Shown: positions 1-6,451, counted from the first letter of the stretch. The stretch is 6,633 bases of DNA from an uncultured Gammaproteobacteria bacterium (GCA_964522265.1 CAZFVS010000057.1:1-6633), one strand, 5' to 3'. Numbers and translations: made by a program. Notes: a model not told the origin generated them from the sequence alone.

Positions 1-782
1 CTTGCTTGCAACTCGGCAAAATCTATATACAAAGATACTATCAAATTTAATTGGTTGAGCTCATTTTCAGTTAAATAATTTTTAGCCACTGCTATATCGT
101 CGGTGGTAATATAATCGCTTTTAAAACTCATCAGACCCATTAATGGTTTTTTACTATCTGCCCGCTTATTTATAATTTCGGCTGCCGTATTTCCATGTAC
201 CGCAAAATGCATTTTATTTTGCACTGTAGCAAAAAACTTCTGAGTAAAATGTGCGTCTTGTTTATAATCAATGCTTGTTGCGTAAATATCAGTTATTTTC
301 TGATAAAACATCCGCTCACTGCTCCGAATATCACGCACTCGTTGTAACAGTTCTTGAAAGTAACGTGCCCTACCGCCAGCCTGCTTGAGCCGTTCATCAT
401 CCAGCGTAAAGCCTTTTATCAGATATTCCCACAGTCTTTCTGTTGCCCATTTGCGAAACCGCGTTCCCTGCTCAGATCGCACACGATAACCAACTGCTAA
501 AATAGCATCAAGGTTGTAGTGTCTTACATCACGAGCAACTTCTCTGGTGGCTTCCTTTTGAACTATCCGGAAATTCCGGACAGTTGAATTTTTATCTAGT
601 TCTTGCTCCAAATAAATATTCGCTAAATGCTCATTAACTGTACGCACATCAACATCAAAAAGCTCGGCTATCAATTTTTGCGTTAGCCAGACATTCTCAT
701 CTTCAATTCTGACTCGGATTTTTTGCTCATCACCAAGAGCTTGATAGATGACAATTTGTGGTTTTTTAGTTTCTTTTTTCAT
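1..782 (-). CDS. RhuM-family protein (Virulence_RhuM-like), N-terminal 260 codons; the C-terminus lies beyond the left window edge
   Basis: Hand translation of the reverse strand from ATG (complement of 780..782) is open all the way to position 1. It reads MKKETKKPQIVIYQALGDEQKIRVRIEDENVWLTQKLIAELFDVDVRTVNEHLANIYLEQELDKNSTVRNFRIVQKEATREVARDVRHYNLDAILAVGYRVRSEQGTRFRKWATERLWEYLIKGFTLDDERLKQAGGRARYFQELLQRVRDIRSSERMFIRKITDIYATSIDYKQDAHFTQKFFATVQNKMHFAVHGNTAAEIINKRADSKKPLMGLMSFKSDYITTDDIAVAKNYLTENELNQLNLIVSLYIDFAELQA. The blocks HYNLDAILAVGYRV, GTRFRKWATERL.EYLIKGF.LDDERLK, DIRSSE, TDIYATSIDY, FFATVQNKMH.A.HG.TAAEII and AKNYLTE.EL..LN.IVS.Y.DFAELQA are the conserved signature of the RhuM family as I recall it. 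The ORF is not in the supplied track because it has no stop inside the window. Confidence 0.88.
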   Translation of the reverse strand, partial: MKKETKKPQIVIYQALGDEQKIRVRIEDENVWLTQKLIAELFDVDVRTVNEHLANIYLEQELDKNSTVRNFRIVQKEATREVARDVRHYNLDAILAVGYRVRSEQGTRFRKWATERLWEYLIKGFTLDDERLKQAGGRARYFQELLQRVRDIRSSERMFYQKITDIYATSIDYKQDAHFTQKFFATVQNKMHFAVHGNTAAEIINKRADSKKPLMGLMSFKSDYITTDDIAVAKNYLTENELNQLNLIVSLYIDFAELQA

Positions 783-788
783 TTATAG

Positions 789-796
789 CTCTCCCT
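789..796 (-). promoter_or_regulatory. Shine-Dalgarno (AGGGAGAG on the minus strand) for the RhuM-family gene
   Basis: The minus strand reads TTTCAGGGAGAGCTATAAATG. The GGAG core (791..794) lies 8 nt upstream of the ATG at 782. This is the only clear purine-rich RBS in front of any gene in the window. Confidence 0.55.
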
Positions 797-851
797 GAAA
801 GGCTTGATACAAAACTGGTTGTTTTAAACGTTCTAATTCTTACAATTGTTC

Positions 852-880
852 TTGAATTATATTACTCAGGTCCTTATAAA
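852..880 (+). promoter_or_regulatory. Candidate sigma70-type promoter upstream of alaS (TTGAAT-17 nt-TATAAA)
   Basis: TTGAAT at 852..857, a 17-nt spacer, then TATAAA at 875..880, inside the 131-nt divergent intergenic region. It would give a leader of about 26 nt with no SD. This is a motif match only. Confidence 0.35.
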
Positions 881-897
881 TCATTCGCTAAAAATAA

Positions 898-906
898 TGA
901 TATACT
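898..906 (+). promoter_or_regulatory. Candidate extended -10 element (TGaTATACT) abutting the alaS start codon
   Basis: TG at 898..899 and TATACT at 901..906. Exactly 7 nt (907..913) separate the hexamer from the ATG at 914, so a transcript from here would start at or next to the start codon (leaderless). There is no SD between the element and the ATG. The -35 is poor (AAATCA), which extended -10 promoters tolerate. Confidence 0.35.
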
Positions 907-913
907 TCTTGCT

Positions 914-2248
914 ATGGACTCCTCCCTGCTTAGGCAGAAATATTTTGATTTTTTTACAAAAAAGGGTCATAAATTAGTTCCCTCATCATCCCTCATCCCT
1001 TCAGACCCTACTACGCTGTTCACCAGTGCCGGCATGCAGCCTATGATCCCTTATCTTTTGGGAAAAACCCACCCGCAGGGCAAAAGGATAGTCAACTCCC
1101 AAAAGTGTTTCCGCTCCCAGGATATCATGGAGATCGGAGATAACCGCCACACCACTTTTTTCGAGATGCTGGGCAACTGGTCATTCGGGGATTACTTTAA
1201 AAAAGAACAATTAAATTGGCTTTTTGAATTTTTAACACAGGATTTAGGGCTTAACCCCAACAAGCTTTATGTAACCGCATTTGAAGGAGGCAGCAGTATA
1301 ACAAAGGATCTGGAAACTGTAAGCATATGGCAAGAAATTTTTGAAAGTAAGGGGATAAAAGCGGAAATCGGAGAGCGGATTTTTCTCTACGGCGCTGCCA
1401 AAAACTGGTGGACCAGGGCAGACTCTCCGGAATCTATGCCTGAAGGTGAGCCGGGCGGGCCTGACTCTGAAGTATTTTATCTCTTTGACCAGATTTCCCA
1501 TGACCCAAAGTTTGGCAAGGAGTGCCACCCGAATTGTGATTGCGGAAGATTTTTGGAGATTGCCAATTCAGTTTTTATGCAGTACCAGAAAAAAGACCGG
1601 GGTTTTATCGGGCTGCCTCAAAAAAATGTTGATTTTGGAGGAGGGCTGGAGAGATTAACTGCCGCCTGCCAGAATCAACCGGATATTTTTAAAATAGATC
1701 TTTTCTGGCCTATTATTGAAAAGCTTAAGGAACAACTTAAGGTCAAATATGATGATGAAAAAATTACAGCATCACTTAGGGTTATTGCAGATCATATCAA
1801 AGCTGCAATTTTTTTAATCAAGGACGGGGTTACACCATCCAACAAAATGCAGGGGTATGTTTTAAGAAGACTGCTTCGCCGGTGTGCTGTAAAAATCCAC
1901 ACCATACAAACAGACTCTGAAAGCATCCTTTCAAAACTGGTTGACCCTGTTTTGGATATTTACCAGGGAACCGGTTACTTCCAAACAAGCGACTGGGATC
2001 ATATTAGGCTGATGATTGAAAAGGAGCTTGTGAAATTTAAACAGACCTTGAAAAGGGGCCTGAGGGAGATTGAAAAAGTGGATAAAGTAACAGACAAAAT
2101 AGCATTTGACCTGTACCAAAGTTATGGTTTCCCTTTTGAACTTTTAGAAGAATTATTTTTAGAAAAAGGGCAGAAAATAAGCAGGGAGGATTTTAATCAG
2201 GAATTCCAGAAACACCAGGAACGTTCAAAGTCTTCCTCAGTTATGTAA
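914..2248 (+). CDS. alaS: Alanine--tRNA ligase, truncated 'mini' form: aminoacylation and tRNA-recognition domains only (444 aa); no editing or C-Ala domain
   Basis: Class II AlaRS signature blocks are present: LRQKYFDFFTKKGHKLVPSSSLIP, DPTTLFTSAGM, SQKCFRSQDI.EIGDNRHTTFFEMLGNWSFGDYFK, GGPDSEVFY, EIANSVFMQY, DFGGGLERL. The helical tRNA-recognition block LRVIADHIKAAIFLIKDGVTPSNKMQGYVLRRLLRR and FDLYQSYGFPFEL are also present. The ORF ends with TAA at 2246..2248, about where the beta-barrel/editing region begins in full-length (~870 aa) enzymes. Confidence 0.93.
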   Translation: MDSSLLRQKYFDFFTKKGHKLVPSSSLIPSDPTTLFTSAGMQPMIPYLLGKTHPQGKRIVNSQKCFRSQDIMEIGDNRHTTFFEMLGNWSFGDYFKKEQLNWLFEFLTQDLGLNPNKLYVTAFEGGSSITKDLETVSIWQEIFESKGIKAEIGERIFLYGAAKNWWTRADSPESMPEGEPGGPDSEVFYLFDQISHDPKFGKECHPNCDCGRFLEIANSVFMQYQKKDRGFIGLPQKNVDFGGGLERLTAACQNQPDIFKIDLFWPIIEKLKEQLKVKYDDEKITASLRVIADHIKAAIFLIKDGVTPSNKMQGYVLRRLLRRCAVKIHTIQTDSESILSKLVDPVLDIYQGTGYFQTSDWDHIRLMIEKELVKFKQTLKRGLREIEKVDKVTDKIAFDLYQSYGFPFELLEELFLEKGQKISREDFNQEFQKHQERSKSSSVM

Positions 2249-2251
2249 CTA

Positions 2252-2530
2252 TTATTTTTTCTTACGCCCTTTTGGGAGGACAAAGGCTACCAGGTCTCTC
2301 AGGGACCTGATCGAGGATTTTGCAAGGAATGCCATAATTGAAGCAACTACTATTTTTGAAGGCAGGTCTATCCTCCTTGCCACATCCTCAGTCTCCTCTA
2401 AAATCTTATCCGCCCTTTTCAACCCTTTTCTGATGGCGATTAATATTATCAGCACAACCAGTGCAATCAGCACAAAAATAACAGTCCAGACTGAAACTAA
2501 TATCACCAGCACAAATTCAAGTATTCCCAT
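2252..2530 (-). CDS. Small membrane-anchored protein (92 aa): N-terminal ~32-residue hydrophobic segment, amphipathic helical region and KKK tail; DUF948-like architecture, function unknown
   Basis: The ORF fills most of the gap between alaS and the RodZ-like gene. The N-terminus GILEFVLVILVSVWTVIFVLIALVVLIILIAI is strongly hydrophobic, followed by charged, helix-prone sequence (RKGLKRADKILEETEDVARRI). There is no SD. The call rests on architecture only, with no family-specific motif recognised. Confidence 0.5.
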   Translation of the reverse strand: MGILEFVLVILVSVWTVIFVLIALVVLIILIAIRKGLKRADKILEETEDVARRIDLPSKIVVASIMAFLAKSSIRSLRDLVAFVLPKGRKKK

Positions 2531-2590: not shown

Positions 2591-3229
2591 CTACTTTTCA
2601 ACAAGTACTGTCCTGTCTATCTTGGTACTCTGCCCAAATTTACTGGTCGCCACAACAGTTATTATGTTCGAGGAGGAAGAAAGTTTAACTTCCTCCTGGA
2701 AATGCCCGTTTTTATCTACCCCTATATCCTGGTTATTTACCATTATTTTATTCTCAGGATCCGTATTCCCTTCAACTAGTACAGACGGTATCTCAACTGA
2801 TTGACCATCCTTGGGACTCACCACTTCCAGATTTGGTGCCCCAATAAACTGCCGGTATTCCAACCAAAGATAGGTAAAAAAACTCAATATAATTATGGCT
2901 GTAGTAAGCCAGATAACTCTGGCGGGAGTAATACGCAGTCTGCTCTCTTTAAGCGGTTTGGAAAAACTTTCTAAAACCACCGGAGGGTGTTTCCTTGCTT
3001 CAAAATCCCTTCTGAACACCGCTAAAAGTTTCTGTGTGTCCAATCCTAAAAACCTTCCGTAGTTTTTAATAAACCCCTGAATAAATGTTGCAGGCGGCAG
3101 TTTGGAATAATCATTTGCTTCCAGGGCCTGGAGAAGCTCTTTGCGAATCTTGGTATTTTTCTCAACATCTTCCAGCATCAGCAGTTTGCTTTCCCTTGTT
3201 TCTCTCAAAATCTGCCCGACAGTTCTCAT
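2591..3229 (-). CDS. RodZ-like protein: N-terminal HTH (HTH_25/XRE-like), one transmembrane helix and an extracytoplasmic Ig-like beta domain
   Basis: The N-terminus VGQILRETRESKLLMLEDVEKNTKIRKELLQALEANDYSKLPPATFIQGFIKNYGRFLGLD matches the RodZ-type HTH pattern (...I....L.ALE..D...LP...Y..GF...YA..LGLD). The TM helix is VIWLTTAIIILSFFTYLWL. The C-terminus LEVVSPKDGQSVEIPSVLVEGNTDPENKIMVNNQDIGVDKNGHFQEEVKL...NIITVVATSKFGQ looks like a beta-sandwich. The ORF track starts at TTG 3232; I prefer the adjacent ATG at 3229 (MRTVGQ...). Confidence 0.82.
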   Translation of the reverse strand: MRTVGQILRETRESKLLMLEDVEKNTKIRKELLQALEANDYSKLPPATFIQGFIKNYGRFLGLDTQKLLAVFRRDFEARKHPPVVLESFSKPLKESRLRITPARVIWLTTAIIILSFFTYLWLEYRQFIGAPNLEVVSPKDGQSVEIPSVLVEGNTDPENKIMVNNQDIGVDKNGHFQEEVKLSSSSNIITVVATSKFGQSTKIDRTVLVEK

Positions 3230-3237
3230 CAAAATGA

Positions 3238-3334: not shown

Positions 3335-6300
3335 ATGTTCACAGAGAAAGAAGTATCGTTATTTAGCATACTAAACAACCTACTAGCGAATAACCAACTC
3401 GAGCTGAAAAAGTTAACAGGGGAAGTGAAGGAACCGTTTTTGAAAAAATACCCTACTTCTATTATTAATATTAAATCTTTTTACCCAAAGGAGGACTTCA
3501 CAAAGGTTTTAGACCAATCTATCTACAAACCTATCTACAACCAAAGCGTTAAACTGCCAGTTTTTAATCCTAAAAAACCTGCTGCTGACATCCCGGTAGA
3601 GGTATCCATGAGAGTATCCGAGCAGCAAAAAATAGCCGGCCAAGCGCTGACTATAGCTTCGTTAAAAGGTACGCTTGACGAAGAATACCAAAAACATAAA
3701 AAAGCGTTAATCAAAACCGCCCTCGAAGACCAGTTTCCCAGGGTCAAACAGGAAGCTGCCATACAACTGAGGCTTCTTGCCAACTCCGGGCTCGACGGAG
3801 AAATTGTCAGACATATGGCTGCGTTAACCCGCAGGATTATCCGCCAAAAAGGACAAATAGCCAAACTAAGCACTGAGCAGGCATTAGCTATCCGAACCAT
3901 CTGTTCATTAAACGATTACGATGCCCAAAGAGTTGCCATCCAATTGGTAACATCCGAGGCTTTAGACCCCAGGATTAAAAAATTGGTTCTGAGAAAGTTA
4001 TGTCAAACAAGTTTCTTTAATAAATATTATGGGATTTCAGATTTTATCAGTCAGTATACTTCTCAAGACAGCAGGGAGATTCCATGGGATAAATTCAGAC
4101 CCTTAATAAGTTTATATGCCCATCCCAGCAGAGAACTCCGCGAAACAGCCTTTGCATCTATTTCACCGGTAATGAGCAGGGGGGGTTATTGGCTGTCAGA
4201 TGCTATTGCTGATTACCGGGATAAAACACCAAATATTCCTGACAGGGCATTCTTGCAAGTACTCGCACTGTCAGAAAATAGCAAAATACCGATCGAAAAA
4301 TTTGATGCTTTATTCAGTTTAGCAGATAAAAACAGAGCGGTCTCGGAGGAACTAACCATGCTCCTGACTTACCTTCTGGAAAAAGATTCTTGTTATGATA
4401 ACGGACATTATGAACGTGGTCGGATTTTACGGGCACTTTTGCAAGACGATCCCAACCCCGATTTTTTATCTGTCTTCATAAGCTGTCTAAAAAAATCCCT
4501 TTTTATGTTGAGGCAAGCTAGACTAGATTATCTAGAATGTTCAAAATTTATCAGCTGCTTATACGACCCTTCAGGTTCAGCATATAAGCGTAGTCATTCT
4601 TTGGCAGCAGCCTGTGCTGCAAAACCCCCATCTCTGCAAGTAATTGACAAAGCTTTGGAAAAACAGATTGTTAAAAAGATCAGGCAGATCCTGCCCAAAG
4701 GATCTGATGTTAAAAAAATAGCCCAACTGCACTCTTCATGGGACGGCATGGAACCTTTTTTAATTTATATCTCCAGATTATATGATCACCAGTCAGACTT
4801 ATACAAAGACGTATTAGCATTGATGGGTGAGATTATAGCCCATATCGATCCCCCTTCTTTTGAAGAATGGAAAAAATGGCGTTACGACCTGAACAATCAA
4901 AAAGTGAACGAACAGGTGGGTTTTTTAAGCAGTGAGACCTTAGATGCCTGGATATCTGACTATGTTGTGGACTTATCAGATATTCAAAGCGAAGATGTAT
5001 CTGAAAAGATTATTAAAATTAGGGAGATTTTTGACCAGTTTGCTGATTCTGGTCTGAAAGAAACAGGGTCTGTTGACATCCGACAAATTGAGGATAAGCT
5101 TAGAATTTTGACGAAATTTATCTCCTTGAAGGACGATCTCGAACTTGCAAAACGTGCAGCAAAAAGTATTGGGGAGTTGAATGCAACCGAATGCCGCAAA
5201 AGGCGGGCATTGAAAAAAGCCGGGTTCTCTACTCTTAAAACCACAGGCCAAATCCATTCTGAAATTGGCAAAATAAGAGAAGGGTTGGGTGCTGAAAATG
5301 AAGTTAAGATAAAAAATCTTGCTGTAGCTGGCATTATAAAAAAATACACACAGGCTAAAAGCCACTTGGAATATCTCAGATCAAAAAATATTCAACCCAC
5401 GGGTGAAGATTTAACCCATGTTTCATTACTGCAAAACCAGCTCATCGGTACCTTGGGTAACGGATTTGAAAGTCTGCTGAAAGATTATCAAAATATCGCT
5501 GTTTTGACAGCCAACCTGCCAAAGATCATTGACCCTAAACTGGCTGATTTCTTAAGCAGGTACGGGTTAAAAAAATCTTCCCCTTCGGAAAAACTTGAAG
5601 CTGTAATAAATTTTATCCAGAATGGTATTATAGAATTAACTCATACAGAACCTATGCTGGATTCAGATGAAAGAAGAATTTACAAAACCATCAAAGATTT
5701 AAAAATACAGAAGGAAATCCTTTCCCTGCTTACTGCAAAACCCGCAACCTTATCAAACAAACAGCTTAAAGAAAAACTAGCTGTACTTGTAAAAGGCTTG
5801 GGTGAATATAAGGACTTAAGTACCAAATTGGCAGTGTTACAGGAAGATGCGGGAAAAGAGCATTCGGGTAAAAACAATGGTCTGGTGTTTATATTCACCG
5901 ACCACCCTCTAGTTGCTCTTACCGTAGGAAAATATCCTGCGGGGGCTGTCTCCTGCCAGAGTTATTGGAACGGCAGTGATTCTCTTGCAGCATATCCTGC
6001 TGATGCAATGACCAAATTATGTCTTTTAGTTGATAAAAACAGCCTGCCTGAGGATGTAGCCGAAAAGCTGGATAATGCAACCACCAATGAAGAGAAGTTA
6101 GCAGTATTTAACAGTAATACTTATGCCTTTTTAGATGCCATGGTTGCCAGACGGGTTATTAAAATAGTCAGAAATGATCAAAACCAGGAACCATATATCT
6201 TTCTTGAACCGGTTTATACAAGCTACAACCAAACACTGATGATTAATTATTTAAACAAGTTCGCTCTGGGGTTTCTTCATCCTGCAACAGGCTTGCCACT

Positions 6301-6451
6301 GGTAAGAGGTGGCGGAAATATGCGTGTTAGGGTTGCCACCAGCCGTAATAGAAGCCAATATGAAGACGGGGAAAAGGGCGGTCCTAATAATTGCGGCATG
6401 GGTTCTCAAACAGATGAATACACCATGCCTGCCCAATTTTTAGCGGCTTGA
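3335..6451 (+). CDS. Giant orphan protein (1038 aa): N-terminal HEAT/ARM-like repeats, long K/E/L-rich helical (coiled-coil-like) middle, C-terminal globular Cys-containing domain and a Gly/polar tail; function unknown
   Basis: The ORF is an uninterrupted 3.1 kb with a consensus promoter immediately upstream. HEAT-like units are visible: LEDQFPRVKQEAAIQLRLLANSG, NDYDAQRVAIQLVTSEALDPRIKKLVLRKLCQ, YAHPSRELRETAFASISPV. I see no signal peptide, TM segment, Walker A, HExxH or CxxC motif. The alternative start M92 (ATG 3608) has a GAGG 5 nt upstream, but promoter placement favours 3335. Confidence 0.88.
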   Translation: MFTEKEVSLFSILNNLLANNQLELKKLTGEVKEPFLKKYPTSIINIKSFYPKEDFTKVLDQSIYKPIYNQSVKLPVFNPKKPAADIPVEVSMRVSEQQKIAGQALTIASLKGTLDEEYQKHKKALIKTALEDQFPRVKQEAAIQLRLLANSGLDGEIVRHMAALTRRIIRQKGQIAKLSTEQALAIRTICSLNDYDAQRVAIQLVTSEALDPRIKKLVLRKLCQTSFFNKYYGISDFISQYTSQDSREIPWDKFRPLISLYAHPSRELRETAFASISPVMSRGGYWLSDAIADYRDKTPNIPDRAFLQVLALSENSKIPIEKFDALFSLADKNRAVSEELTMLLTYLLEKDSCYDNGHYERGRILRALLQDDPNPDFLSVFISCLKKSLFMLRQARLDYLECSKFISCLYDPSGSAYKRSHSLAAACAAKPPSLQVIDKALEKQIVKKIRQILPKGSDVKKIAQLHSSWDGMEPFLIYISRLYDHQSDLYKDVLALMGEIIAHIDPPSFEEWKKWRYDLNNQKVNEQVGFLSSETLDAWISDYVVDLSDIQSEDVSEKIIKIREIFDQFADSGLKETGSVDIRQIEDKLRILTKFISLKDDLELAKRAAKSIGELNATECRKRRALKKAGFSTLKTTGQIHSEIGKIREGLGAENEVKIKNLAVAGIIKKYTQAKSHLEYLRSKNIQPTGEDLTHVSLLQNQLIGTLGNGFESLLKDYQNIAVLTANLPKIIDPKLADFLSRYGLKKSSPSEKLEAVINFIQNGIIELTHTEPMLDSDERRIYKTIKDLKIQKEILSLLTAKPATLSNKQLKEKLAVLVKGLGEYKDLSTKLAVLQEDAGKEHSGKNNGLVFIFTDHPLVALTVGKYPAGAVSCQSYWNGSDSLAAYPADAMTKLCLLVDKNSLPEDVAEKLDNATTNEEKLAVFNSNTYAFLDAMVARRVIKIVRNDQNQEPYIFLEPVYTSYNQTLMINYLNKFALGFLHPATGLPLVRGGGNMRVRVATSRNRSQYEDGEKGGPNNCGMGSQTDEYTMPAQFLAA

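Follow-up and report, generated by a model that had tools for sequence, protein, structure and literature searches.

A naturally truncated, two-domain alanyl-tRNA synthetase without an editing domain in Microgenomates bacteria

The DNA analysed here (the window) is a complete metagenomic contig of 6,633 bp. It carries an alaS open reading frame (ORF) on the plus strand at positions 914..2248, which starts with ATG, stops with TAA at 2246-2248 and encodes an alanyl-tRNA synthetase (AlaRS) of 444 aa, referred to below as the mini-AlaRS. The intergenic region upstream of it (783..913) is the presumed site of the alaS promoter, and a promoter scan of this region reported no consensus sigma-70 site. 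Downstream, only 3 nt (2249-2251) separate the stop codon of mini-alaS from the stop codon of a convergent ORF on the minus strand (2252..2530), as had been pointed out in an earlier note on this DNA. This ORF encodes a predicted membrane protein of 92 aa, and it lies so close to alaS that an editing domain could not fit downstream. It is kept beside alaS in relatives with the same gene arrangement, including one in which alaS is full length. The next gene (2591..3232, minus strand) encodes a RodZ-like protein with an HTH_25 domain and a Glucodextran_B-like domain, which served as a synteny anchor.

In the Pfam search, residues 6-441 of the protein matched positions 2-431 of the 552 positions in tRNA-synt_2c (PF01411) with E = 1.2e-109, and the score of 367.8 bits (cut-off 30.3) identified it as a class II AlaRS core. 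The same search of the 444-aa protein returned no match to tRNA_SAD (PF07973) or to DHHA1/C-Ala. The best NCBIfam model was PRK01584, which represents a short AlaRS of 595 aa; residues 3-441 aligned to positions 3-437 of this profile with 417.5 bits, leaving positions 438-595 unmatched. The equivalog cut-off of 529 bits was missed because the C-terminal part is absent. TIGR00344, the alaS equivalog for the four-domain prototype, gave 380 bits, under its cut-off of 457 bits.

Based on the profile match, the structure alignments and an AlphaFold model, the class II aminoacylation (catalytic) domain was assigned to approximately residues 1-252 (914..1669, plus strand), with an approximate end that was set by the last beta-strand of the model and the helix at 245-252. 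The helical tRNA-recognition domain was placed by the alignments and the model at approximately residues 253-444 (1670..2245, plus strand). The model of the 444-aa protein had a pLDDT of 81.8 and a pTM of 0.82, and it matched the structures 3HXU, 9JC7, 9JDN and 1RIQ with TM-scores of 0.75-0.82. The earlier note had placed the end of the ORF, at residue 444, near the boundary of E. coli AlaRS fragments known to be active. This was borne out by the end-to-end alignment with the crystallised E. coli fragment 1-441 (3HXU), in which residues 5-442 of the query paired with residues 6-439 of the chain. The fragments from A. aeolicus (1RIQ) and Methylomonas (AlaRS429, 9JC7) also aligned end to end. 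The ORF is an AlaRS made of the aminoacylation and tRNA-recognition domains only.

The residues needed for the first of these functions are conserved. R67, M85, W166, N218, V220, L234, D240 and G242 were invariant in 122 out of 122 sequences, and the equivalents of the E. coli Ala-AMP site residues R69, W170, N212/V214 and D235/G237 were all present. The amino-acid pocket (N218, V220, L234, D240 and G242; 1565..1639, plus strand) was located by alignment to 9JC7 and 9JDN, the wild-type and L219M structures of Methylomonas AlaRS, which were among the best structure matches. In these alignments, Leu234 corresponds to Methylomonas Leu219 and Val220 to Methylomonas Val204. Asp240 corresponds to E. 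coli Asp235, which binds the seryl hydroxyl, and it is the same in all truncated and full-length relatives.

The L219M substitution in Methylomonas AlaRS has been shown to abolish the misactivation of Ser, acting through Val204, and the same study asked why this solution is never found in nature (PMC12143591, 2025). Whether it occurs where editing is absent can be asked of these sequences, and they do not use it. A compensating change in the active site was considered and rejected, as Leu234 and Val220 keep their ordinary identities throughout the 122 sequences. Clade-specific substitutions do exist, the foremost being G170D, where 109 out of 109 full-length relatives have Gly, and none of them is at a known pocket residue. 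As the amino-acid pocket is unchanged, the mini enzyme should misactivate Ser and Gly in the same way as other AlaRS do.

For the tRNA-recognition domain, the view in the earlier note that all motifs are intact has to be modified. It holds for the catalytic residues and for the acceptor-stem Asn, which is kept as N310 (1841-1843, plus strand), the counterpart of E. coli Asn303. It does not hold for the Asp of the LYDTYGFP motif (E. coli Asp400), which is replaced by Gln402 (2117-2119, plus strand). Gln was found in place of E. coli Asp400 in 114 of 122 CPR AlaRS, making it a family-wide feature and not one peculiar to the truncated forms. In the mini-AlaRS of Tupanvirus (TuAlaRS), both of the acceptor-stem residues, Asn and Asp, can be dispensable (PMC10036535). 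Neither the window nor 8 related loci contained a tRNA gene from which tRNA(Ala) identity elements could be read.

Another feature of the catalytic domain, recognised from sequence only, is the Cys/His cluster C204-H205-x2-C208-x-C210 (CHPNCDC; 1523..1543, plus strand). This cluster is invariant across the small and mini AlaRS and is absent from the E. coli and Methylomonas enzymes. It may be a metal site.

The closest proteins belonged to Candidatus Daviesbacteria and to other Microgenomates (CPR/Patescibacteria), and the gene belongs to an ultra-small bacterium of this group. Nearly all of the relatives are 580-650 aa in length and contain PF01411 and PF07973 only. A 'small-AlaRS' has been described in CPR and in some archaea, which has the catalytic, tRNA-recognition and editing domains and neither a beta-barrel nor a C-Ala domain (bioRxiv 10.1101/2023.05.29.542759). 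The parent of the mini-AlaRS is a CPR small-AlaRS of about 600 aa, and not the four-domain prototype. The nearest full-length relatives, which are CPR small-AlaRS (PRK01584) of 590-635 aa, are 56-65% identical to it over all 444 residues. Like the mini-AlaRS, they carry the CHPNCDC cluster and a Gln at the site of E. coli Asp400, lack C-Ala and have the same chromosomal neighbourhood. However, the small-AlaRS is defined by three domains including the editing domain, whereas the mini-AlaRS stops at the linker and falls outside this definition.

The earlier note had described the enzyme as missing both the editing domain and C-Ala. Neither is present, but a truncation that removed both is not what the relatives indicate, since C-Ala was already missing in the small-AlaRS parent. 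With C-Ala already absent in the ancestor, only the editing domain has been lost in the window lineage. The lost domain, of about 165 aa, resembles AlaX-S, with HxxxH and CGGPH motifs and no barrel.

The truncation point was located by the alignment of relatives (2225..2248, plus strand). The last conserved residue is S438 of the KHQExS motif, which is followed by six non-conserved residues (KSSSVM) and the TAA stop codon. In the full-length relatives, the sequence continues past this point with the linker AGMFKGGLAD and then the editing domain with its HxxxH/CxxxH motif.

The window protein (P0001) and six others (P0002-P0005, P0012 and P0061) formed one clade with 94% bootstrap support in a phylogeny based on neighbour-joining only. 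The seven sequences came from independent assemblies, and the identity of the members with the window protein is 63-83%. P0002, from the NCBI MAG GCA_016186955.1, has 462 aa and is 80% identical to it, and P0003-P0005 have 446 aa each. An apparent absence of the N-terminus in P0061 was an effect of gene calling. All members of the clade end 2-9 residues past KHQExS, just before the position of AGMFKGGLAD in the long forms, and their tails differ. The stop codons were checked at the DNA level in five loci, taken from one NCBI MAG and from Logan assemblies of different runs, and were confirmed as true stop codons, with no remnant of an editing domain downstream of them. A scan of species-representative genomes gave a closest match of 62-63% identity, and neither the window clade nor the MAG of its closest relative (GCA_016186955.1) was among these genomes.

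For the window gene paired with the relative at 80% identity, dN/dS was 0.07 and dS was 1.5. In the other pairs for which it could be computed, dN/dS was 0.11-0.12, most pairs being saturated at synonymous sites. The clade has diverged to approximately 63-66% identity without decay. Mini-alaS is under purifying selection and is a real gene, neither an artefact nor a pseudogene.

The loss of the editing domain was not restricted to this clade. At least four other lineages were truncated independently at the same linker. These are L015, with 448 aa on a contig of 609 kb, L074, with 446 aa on a contig of 219 kb, P0105/L093 and P0057/L092. A truncated gene is also present in the assembly CAZPLB01. 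The nearest relatives of L015, at 70% identity, are all full length, as are P0045 and P0047, the sisters of P0057. Together with the window clade, this makes at least five separate losses of the editing domain in Microgenomates. Four of the five events are singletons so far, and these could be short-lived, mildly deleterious variants.

As the mini-AlaRS has no editing domain of its own, proofreading could be provided by another protein. For the vicinity of the gene, we searched six-frame translations of the window and of the loci L001-L006, L015 and L074, by tblastn with the editing domain of a sister and by hmmsearch (--max) with an editing profile of 23 sequences. No editing domain was found within approximately 10 kb in these nine loci, with nothing better than E ~1. 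Several small ORFs downstream of alaS in relatives (100 aa and 92 aa in L002, 143 aa in L001) were considered as candidates and rejected, as their translations are unlike the editing domain. Of the split enzyme raised as an option in the earlier note, an adjacent partner is excluded over this distance.

An editing protein encoded more than 10 kb away, which clears Ser and Gly from tRNA(Ala) and keeps fidelity, is a possibility that we take seriously without considering it probable. Such a protein might be the lost domain, separated by fission, or an AlaX without relation to it. The lost domain resembles AlaX-S, which makes function on its own plausible, and repeated independent loss would be easiest to tolerate if the group commonly has such a back-up. 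On the other hand, no tRNA_SAD ORF lay within approximately 10 kb of alaS in any of the nine loci. Free-standing editors were also searched for by running the profile against 1.84 billion representatives and by a homologue search with a 175-aa editing domain. Although these database searches returned many short proteins with tRNA_SAD only, those inspected start within AlaRS sequence and are fragments. Three candidates on the longest contigs were rejected as free-standing editors, being pieces of frameshift-broken alaS genes in error-prone assemblies. Among the best 120-150 matches, none of the short tRNA_SAD proteins was on a contig of a truncated-alaS locus, which is a weak negative. There was no report of AlaX in CPR in the literature that was searched.

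The position of the gene in the chromosome bears on whether the mini-AlaRS is the enzyme that the cell depends on. The block RNase J-FtsK-RodZ-alaS-p731-Sortase-RuvX-YceG is common to the full-length and truncated loci, p731 being a protein of approximately 730 aa. Mini-alaS is the positional orthologue of the full-length Microgenomates alaS. As it occupies the conserved position of alaS, the mini-AlaRS is most likely the only AlaRS of the cell. When set against the full-length sister P0009, the window clade has its alaS in the opposite orientation with respect to RodZ and to p731-Sortase-RuvX-YceG. The inversion was considered as a cause of the truncation and rejected, as P0047 is inverted and full length, while L015, L074 and P0105 are truncated and not inverted. 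The inversion is therefore older than the truncation and unrelated to it.

If, instead, mini-alaS were a duplicate that has degenerated or been repurposed, the real work would be done by a full-length alaS at another place in the genome. The 'hypothetical' annotation by NCBI of two of these genes (HYW46_00405 of GCA_016186955.1, JACPKP01, and HY404_02030 on the 609-kb contig of the JACQJR01 MAG) would fit with this. However, the gene fills the ancestral alaS slot of the conserved block, its dN/dS is in the range of 0.07-0.12 with all catalytic residues invariant, and the divergence of the clade to about 63-66% identity has taken place without decay. In addition, CPR genomes, which are of approximately 1 Mb, rarely have duplicate synthetases. 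We consider a duplicate very unlikely.

An assembly or sequencing artefact, whether a frameshift, an erroneous premature stop or a chimeric join at approximately position 2248, is effectively refuted. The window is a short metagenomic contig, and error-prone assemblies elsewhere do split alaS into pieces, but the same boundary recurs in at least seven clade members and in nine loci that were assembled separately and whose tails and stops differ. In addition, the convergent neighbour follows directly in the same way, and no coding remnant of an editing domain lies downstream. The earlier note had itself named a chimera and relatives fused to an editing domain as findings that would speak against a natural truncation. 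The recurrence of the boundary argues against the former, and in the clade no relative at 63% identity or more is fused to an editing domain, which speaks against a local sequencing error. Its main claim, that this is a naturally truncated mini-AlaRS and not an error, is upheld by the same cut in independent assemblies of relatives, by purifying selection and by the conserved position.

Our preferred explanation, which we hold with considerable confidence, is that the mini-AlaRS is a functional enzyme of two domains, kept by selection and derived from the CPR small-AlaRS by loss of the editing domain. The editing domain would have been deleted cleanly at the inter-domain linker. The remaining protein would activate alanine and charge tRNA(Ala) through the acceptor stem alone, by analogy with the isolated AlaRS fragments and with the mini-AlaRS of Tupanvirus. 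Because its amino-acid pocket is ordinary, some Ser-tRNA(Ala) and Gly-tRNA(Ala) would be expected, and the enzyme itself would not be able to clear them. The mischarged products would have to be hydrolysed in trans, by an AlaX-type protein for Ser and by DTD for Gly, or else be tolerated as low-level mistranslation, in the manner of other parasites with reduced genomes. Between these two outcomes, we weakly favour the tolerance of mistranslation, for which we see roughly an even chance, over the trans-editor.

A stronger version, which we put forward tentatively, is that this Daviesbacteria-like clade of free-replicating Microgenomates has lived for a long time without any AlaRS proofreading, having no editing domain in cis, no AlaX and no compensation in the pocket. 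If this is true, Ala-to-Ser and Ala-to-Gly mistranslation would be a constitutive and tolerated feature of the proteome, and the loss would be one that recurs in related lineages.

The loss of the built-in proofreading domain in this lineage matters as AlaRS editing has been regarded as kept in nearly all of cellular life. Editing of Ser and Gly by AlaRS is backed by AlaX and DTD, and mild defects result in disease in mammals (PMC12143591). AlaRS has also been called the only synthetase whose prototype architecture is preserved across biology (PMC10036535). The lineage can be regarded as a natural experiment on whether AlaRS proofreading is indispensable for cells. It could also show how a minimal AlaRS binds tRNA when both C-Ala and the editing domain are absent. 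A practical consequence concerns annotation: 'hypothetical protein' labels on these essential genes can distort the completeness estimates and metabolic calls of CPR genomes.

Decay of editing is known from parasites with reduced genomes, in the LeuRS, PheRS and ThrRS of Mycoplasma and in the LeuRS of microsporidia. These cases are similar to the present one in the reduced genome, the dependence on a host, the loss of proofreading and its recurrence in several lineages. They differ in affecting other synthetases, mostly by point mutations or degeneration. To our knowledge, AlaRS editing has been seen as the exception in never being lost.

In the literature searched, there was no report of a mini-AlaRS from a cellular organism, and the only cases were those of giant viruses. 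The AlaRS of Tupanvirus, Terrestrivirus and Yasminevirus consist of the catalytic and recognition domains only, with no editing domain and no C-Ala, as in the bacterial mini-AlaRS, and a giant-virus example had been mentioned in the earlier note. TuAlaRS is able to charge both tRNA(Ala) and a microhelix, which it binds, and it can rescue yeast; it descends from the eukaryotic AlaRS of the amoeba host (PMC10036535). The model of the mini-AlaRS matches the giant-virus AlaRS by fold, but the sequence identity is only 22%. Given this low identity, the host origin of TuAlaRS and the fact that the nearest relatives of the mini-AlaRS are bacterial CPR enzymes, its architecture is of an origin independent of the viral proteins. 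There are two further differences. TuAlaRS has lost both the acceptor-stem Asn and Asp, whereas the bacterial mini-AlaRS keeps the Asn. The viral enzyme also works in a host that has an editing-competent AlaRS, while the bacterial one appears to be the cell's own alaS product.

The split AlaRS of Nanoarchaeum equitans, with its alpha and beta subunits, is another natural cellular case in which the catalytic part is a separate polypeptide. In N. equitans, however, the recognition domain itself is split, and its remainder is retained in the beta subunit together with the editing domain and C-Ala; this subunit is needed for G3:U70 specificity. The mini-AlaRS has its whole recognition domain, and a second half was not present within approximately 10 kb in the nine loci.

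Engineered fragments of similar extent are 1-441 and N461 from E. coli, AlaRS453 from A. aeolicus and AlaRS429 from Methylomonas, which share the fold and have their end points within a few residues of that of the mini-AlaRS. Methylomonas AlaRS429, without an editing domain, is active and still misactivates Ser (PMC12143591), whereas tRNA binding by E. coli N461 is weak and yeast is not rescued by it (PMC10036535). Given this behaviour of N461, it cannot be taken for granted that a bare catalytic fragment is active. These fragments are laboratory truncations of four-domain enzymes, whereas the 444-aa AlaRS described here is a natural protein under selection.

Directly upstream of alaS in the window lies a RhuM-family gene (1..782, minus strand; PF13310, E = 8e-92), which is incomplete and extends past the contig start. 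The same gene had a second match in PADLOC, to PDC-S05 (E = 4e-118), a candidate defence family. In the relatives, this place is taken by the conserved block encoding a ~730-aa protein, Sortase, RuvX and YceG. The window contig has therefore undergone an additional rearrangement or insertion, adjoining the promoter region of alaS.

Immediately downstream of alaS, a predicted membrane protein of 92 aa without a family match is encoded on the opposite strand (2252..2530, minus strand). Its homologues, with 34-67% identity, are found immediately 3' of alaS in related loci with the same gene arrangement, and the loci keeping it beside alaS include one with a full-length alaS (L094). Further along, searches of Pfam, NCBIfam, PHROGs and PADLOC gave no match for a 1038-aa ORF (3335..6451, plus strand). 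The closest relative has a 1065-aa homologue with 57% identity in the equivalent place (L001, 10383-13580); this was the only one of the related loci fetched in which a homologue was found.

The truncated AlaRS of this closest relative (L001 7378-8766, HYW46_00405) and that of an independently truncated alaS locus (L015 10001-11347, HY404_02030) were both named 'hypothetical protein' by the NCBI annotation, presumably due to scores under the alaS equivalog cut-offs. Genomes with a truncated AlaRS of this kind would look as if they lacked alaS in automated surveys. On some long ENA contigs (L089 4586-6507, L090 5000-6531 and L091 4949-6579), frameshifts split alaS, as well as neighbouring ribosomal-protein genes, into two to three ORFs. 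Such splitting results in spurious 'free-standing' tRNA_SAD proteins, which could wrongly pass for AlaX or for a split AlaRS. A separate 246-aa protein on a 2,128-bp ENA contig (P0449) was recorded with PHP (PF02811) and tRNA_SAD domains, an uncommon pairing.

Within the AlaRS itself, residue 170 (Asp170, window 1421..1423) was Gly in all 109 full-length relatives and Asp in six of the seven members of the truncated clade, while the independently truncated P0057 carried Ser. This change may reflect a constraint released following the loss of the editing domain, or it may be compensatory.

Two further features are shared with the small AlaRS. A Cys/His cluster in the catalytic domain, CHPNCDC (residues 204-210, window 1523..1543), was invariant across the small and mini AlaRS and missing in the E. 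coli and Methylomonas enzymes; judged from the sequence, the cluster may serve as a structural metal site particular to this lineage of AlaRS. Gln402 (window 2117..2119) occupies the position of the canonical G3:U70-contacting Asp (E. coli Asp400, LYDTYGFP), and the same replacement (LYQSYGFP) was found in 114 of the 122 CPR small and mini AlaRS. The partner Asn of the G3:U70 contact was retained. The whole CPR small/mini AlaRS family may recognise tRNA(Ala) in a mode different from the textbook one.
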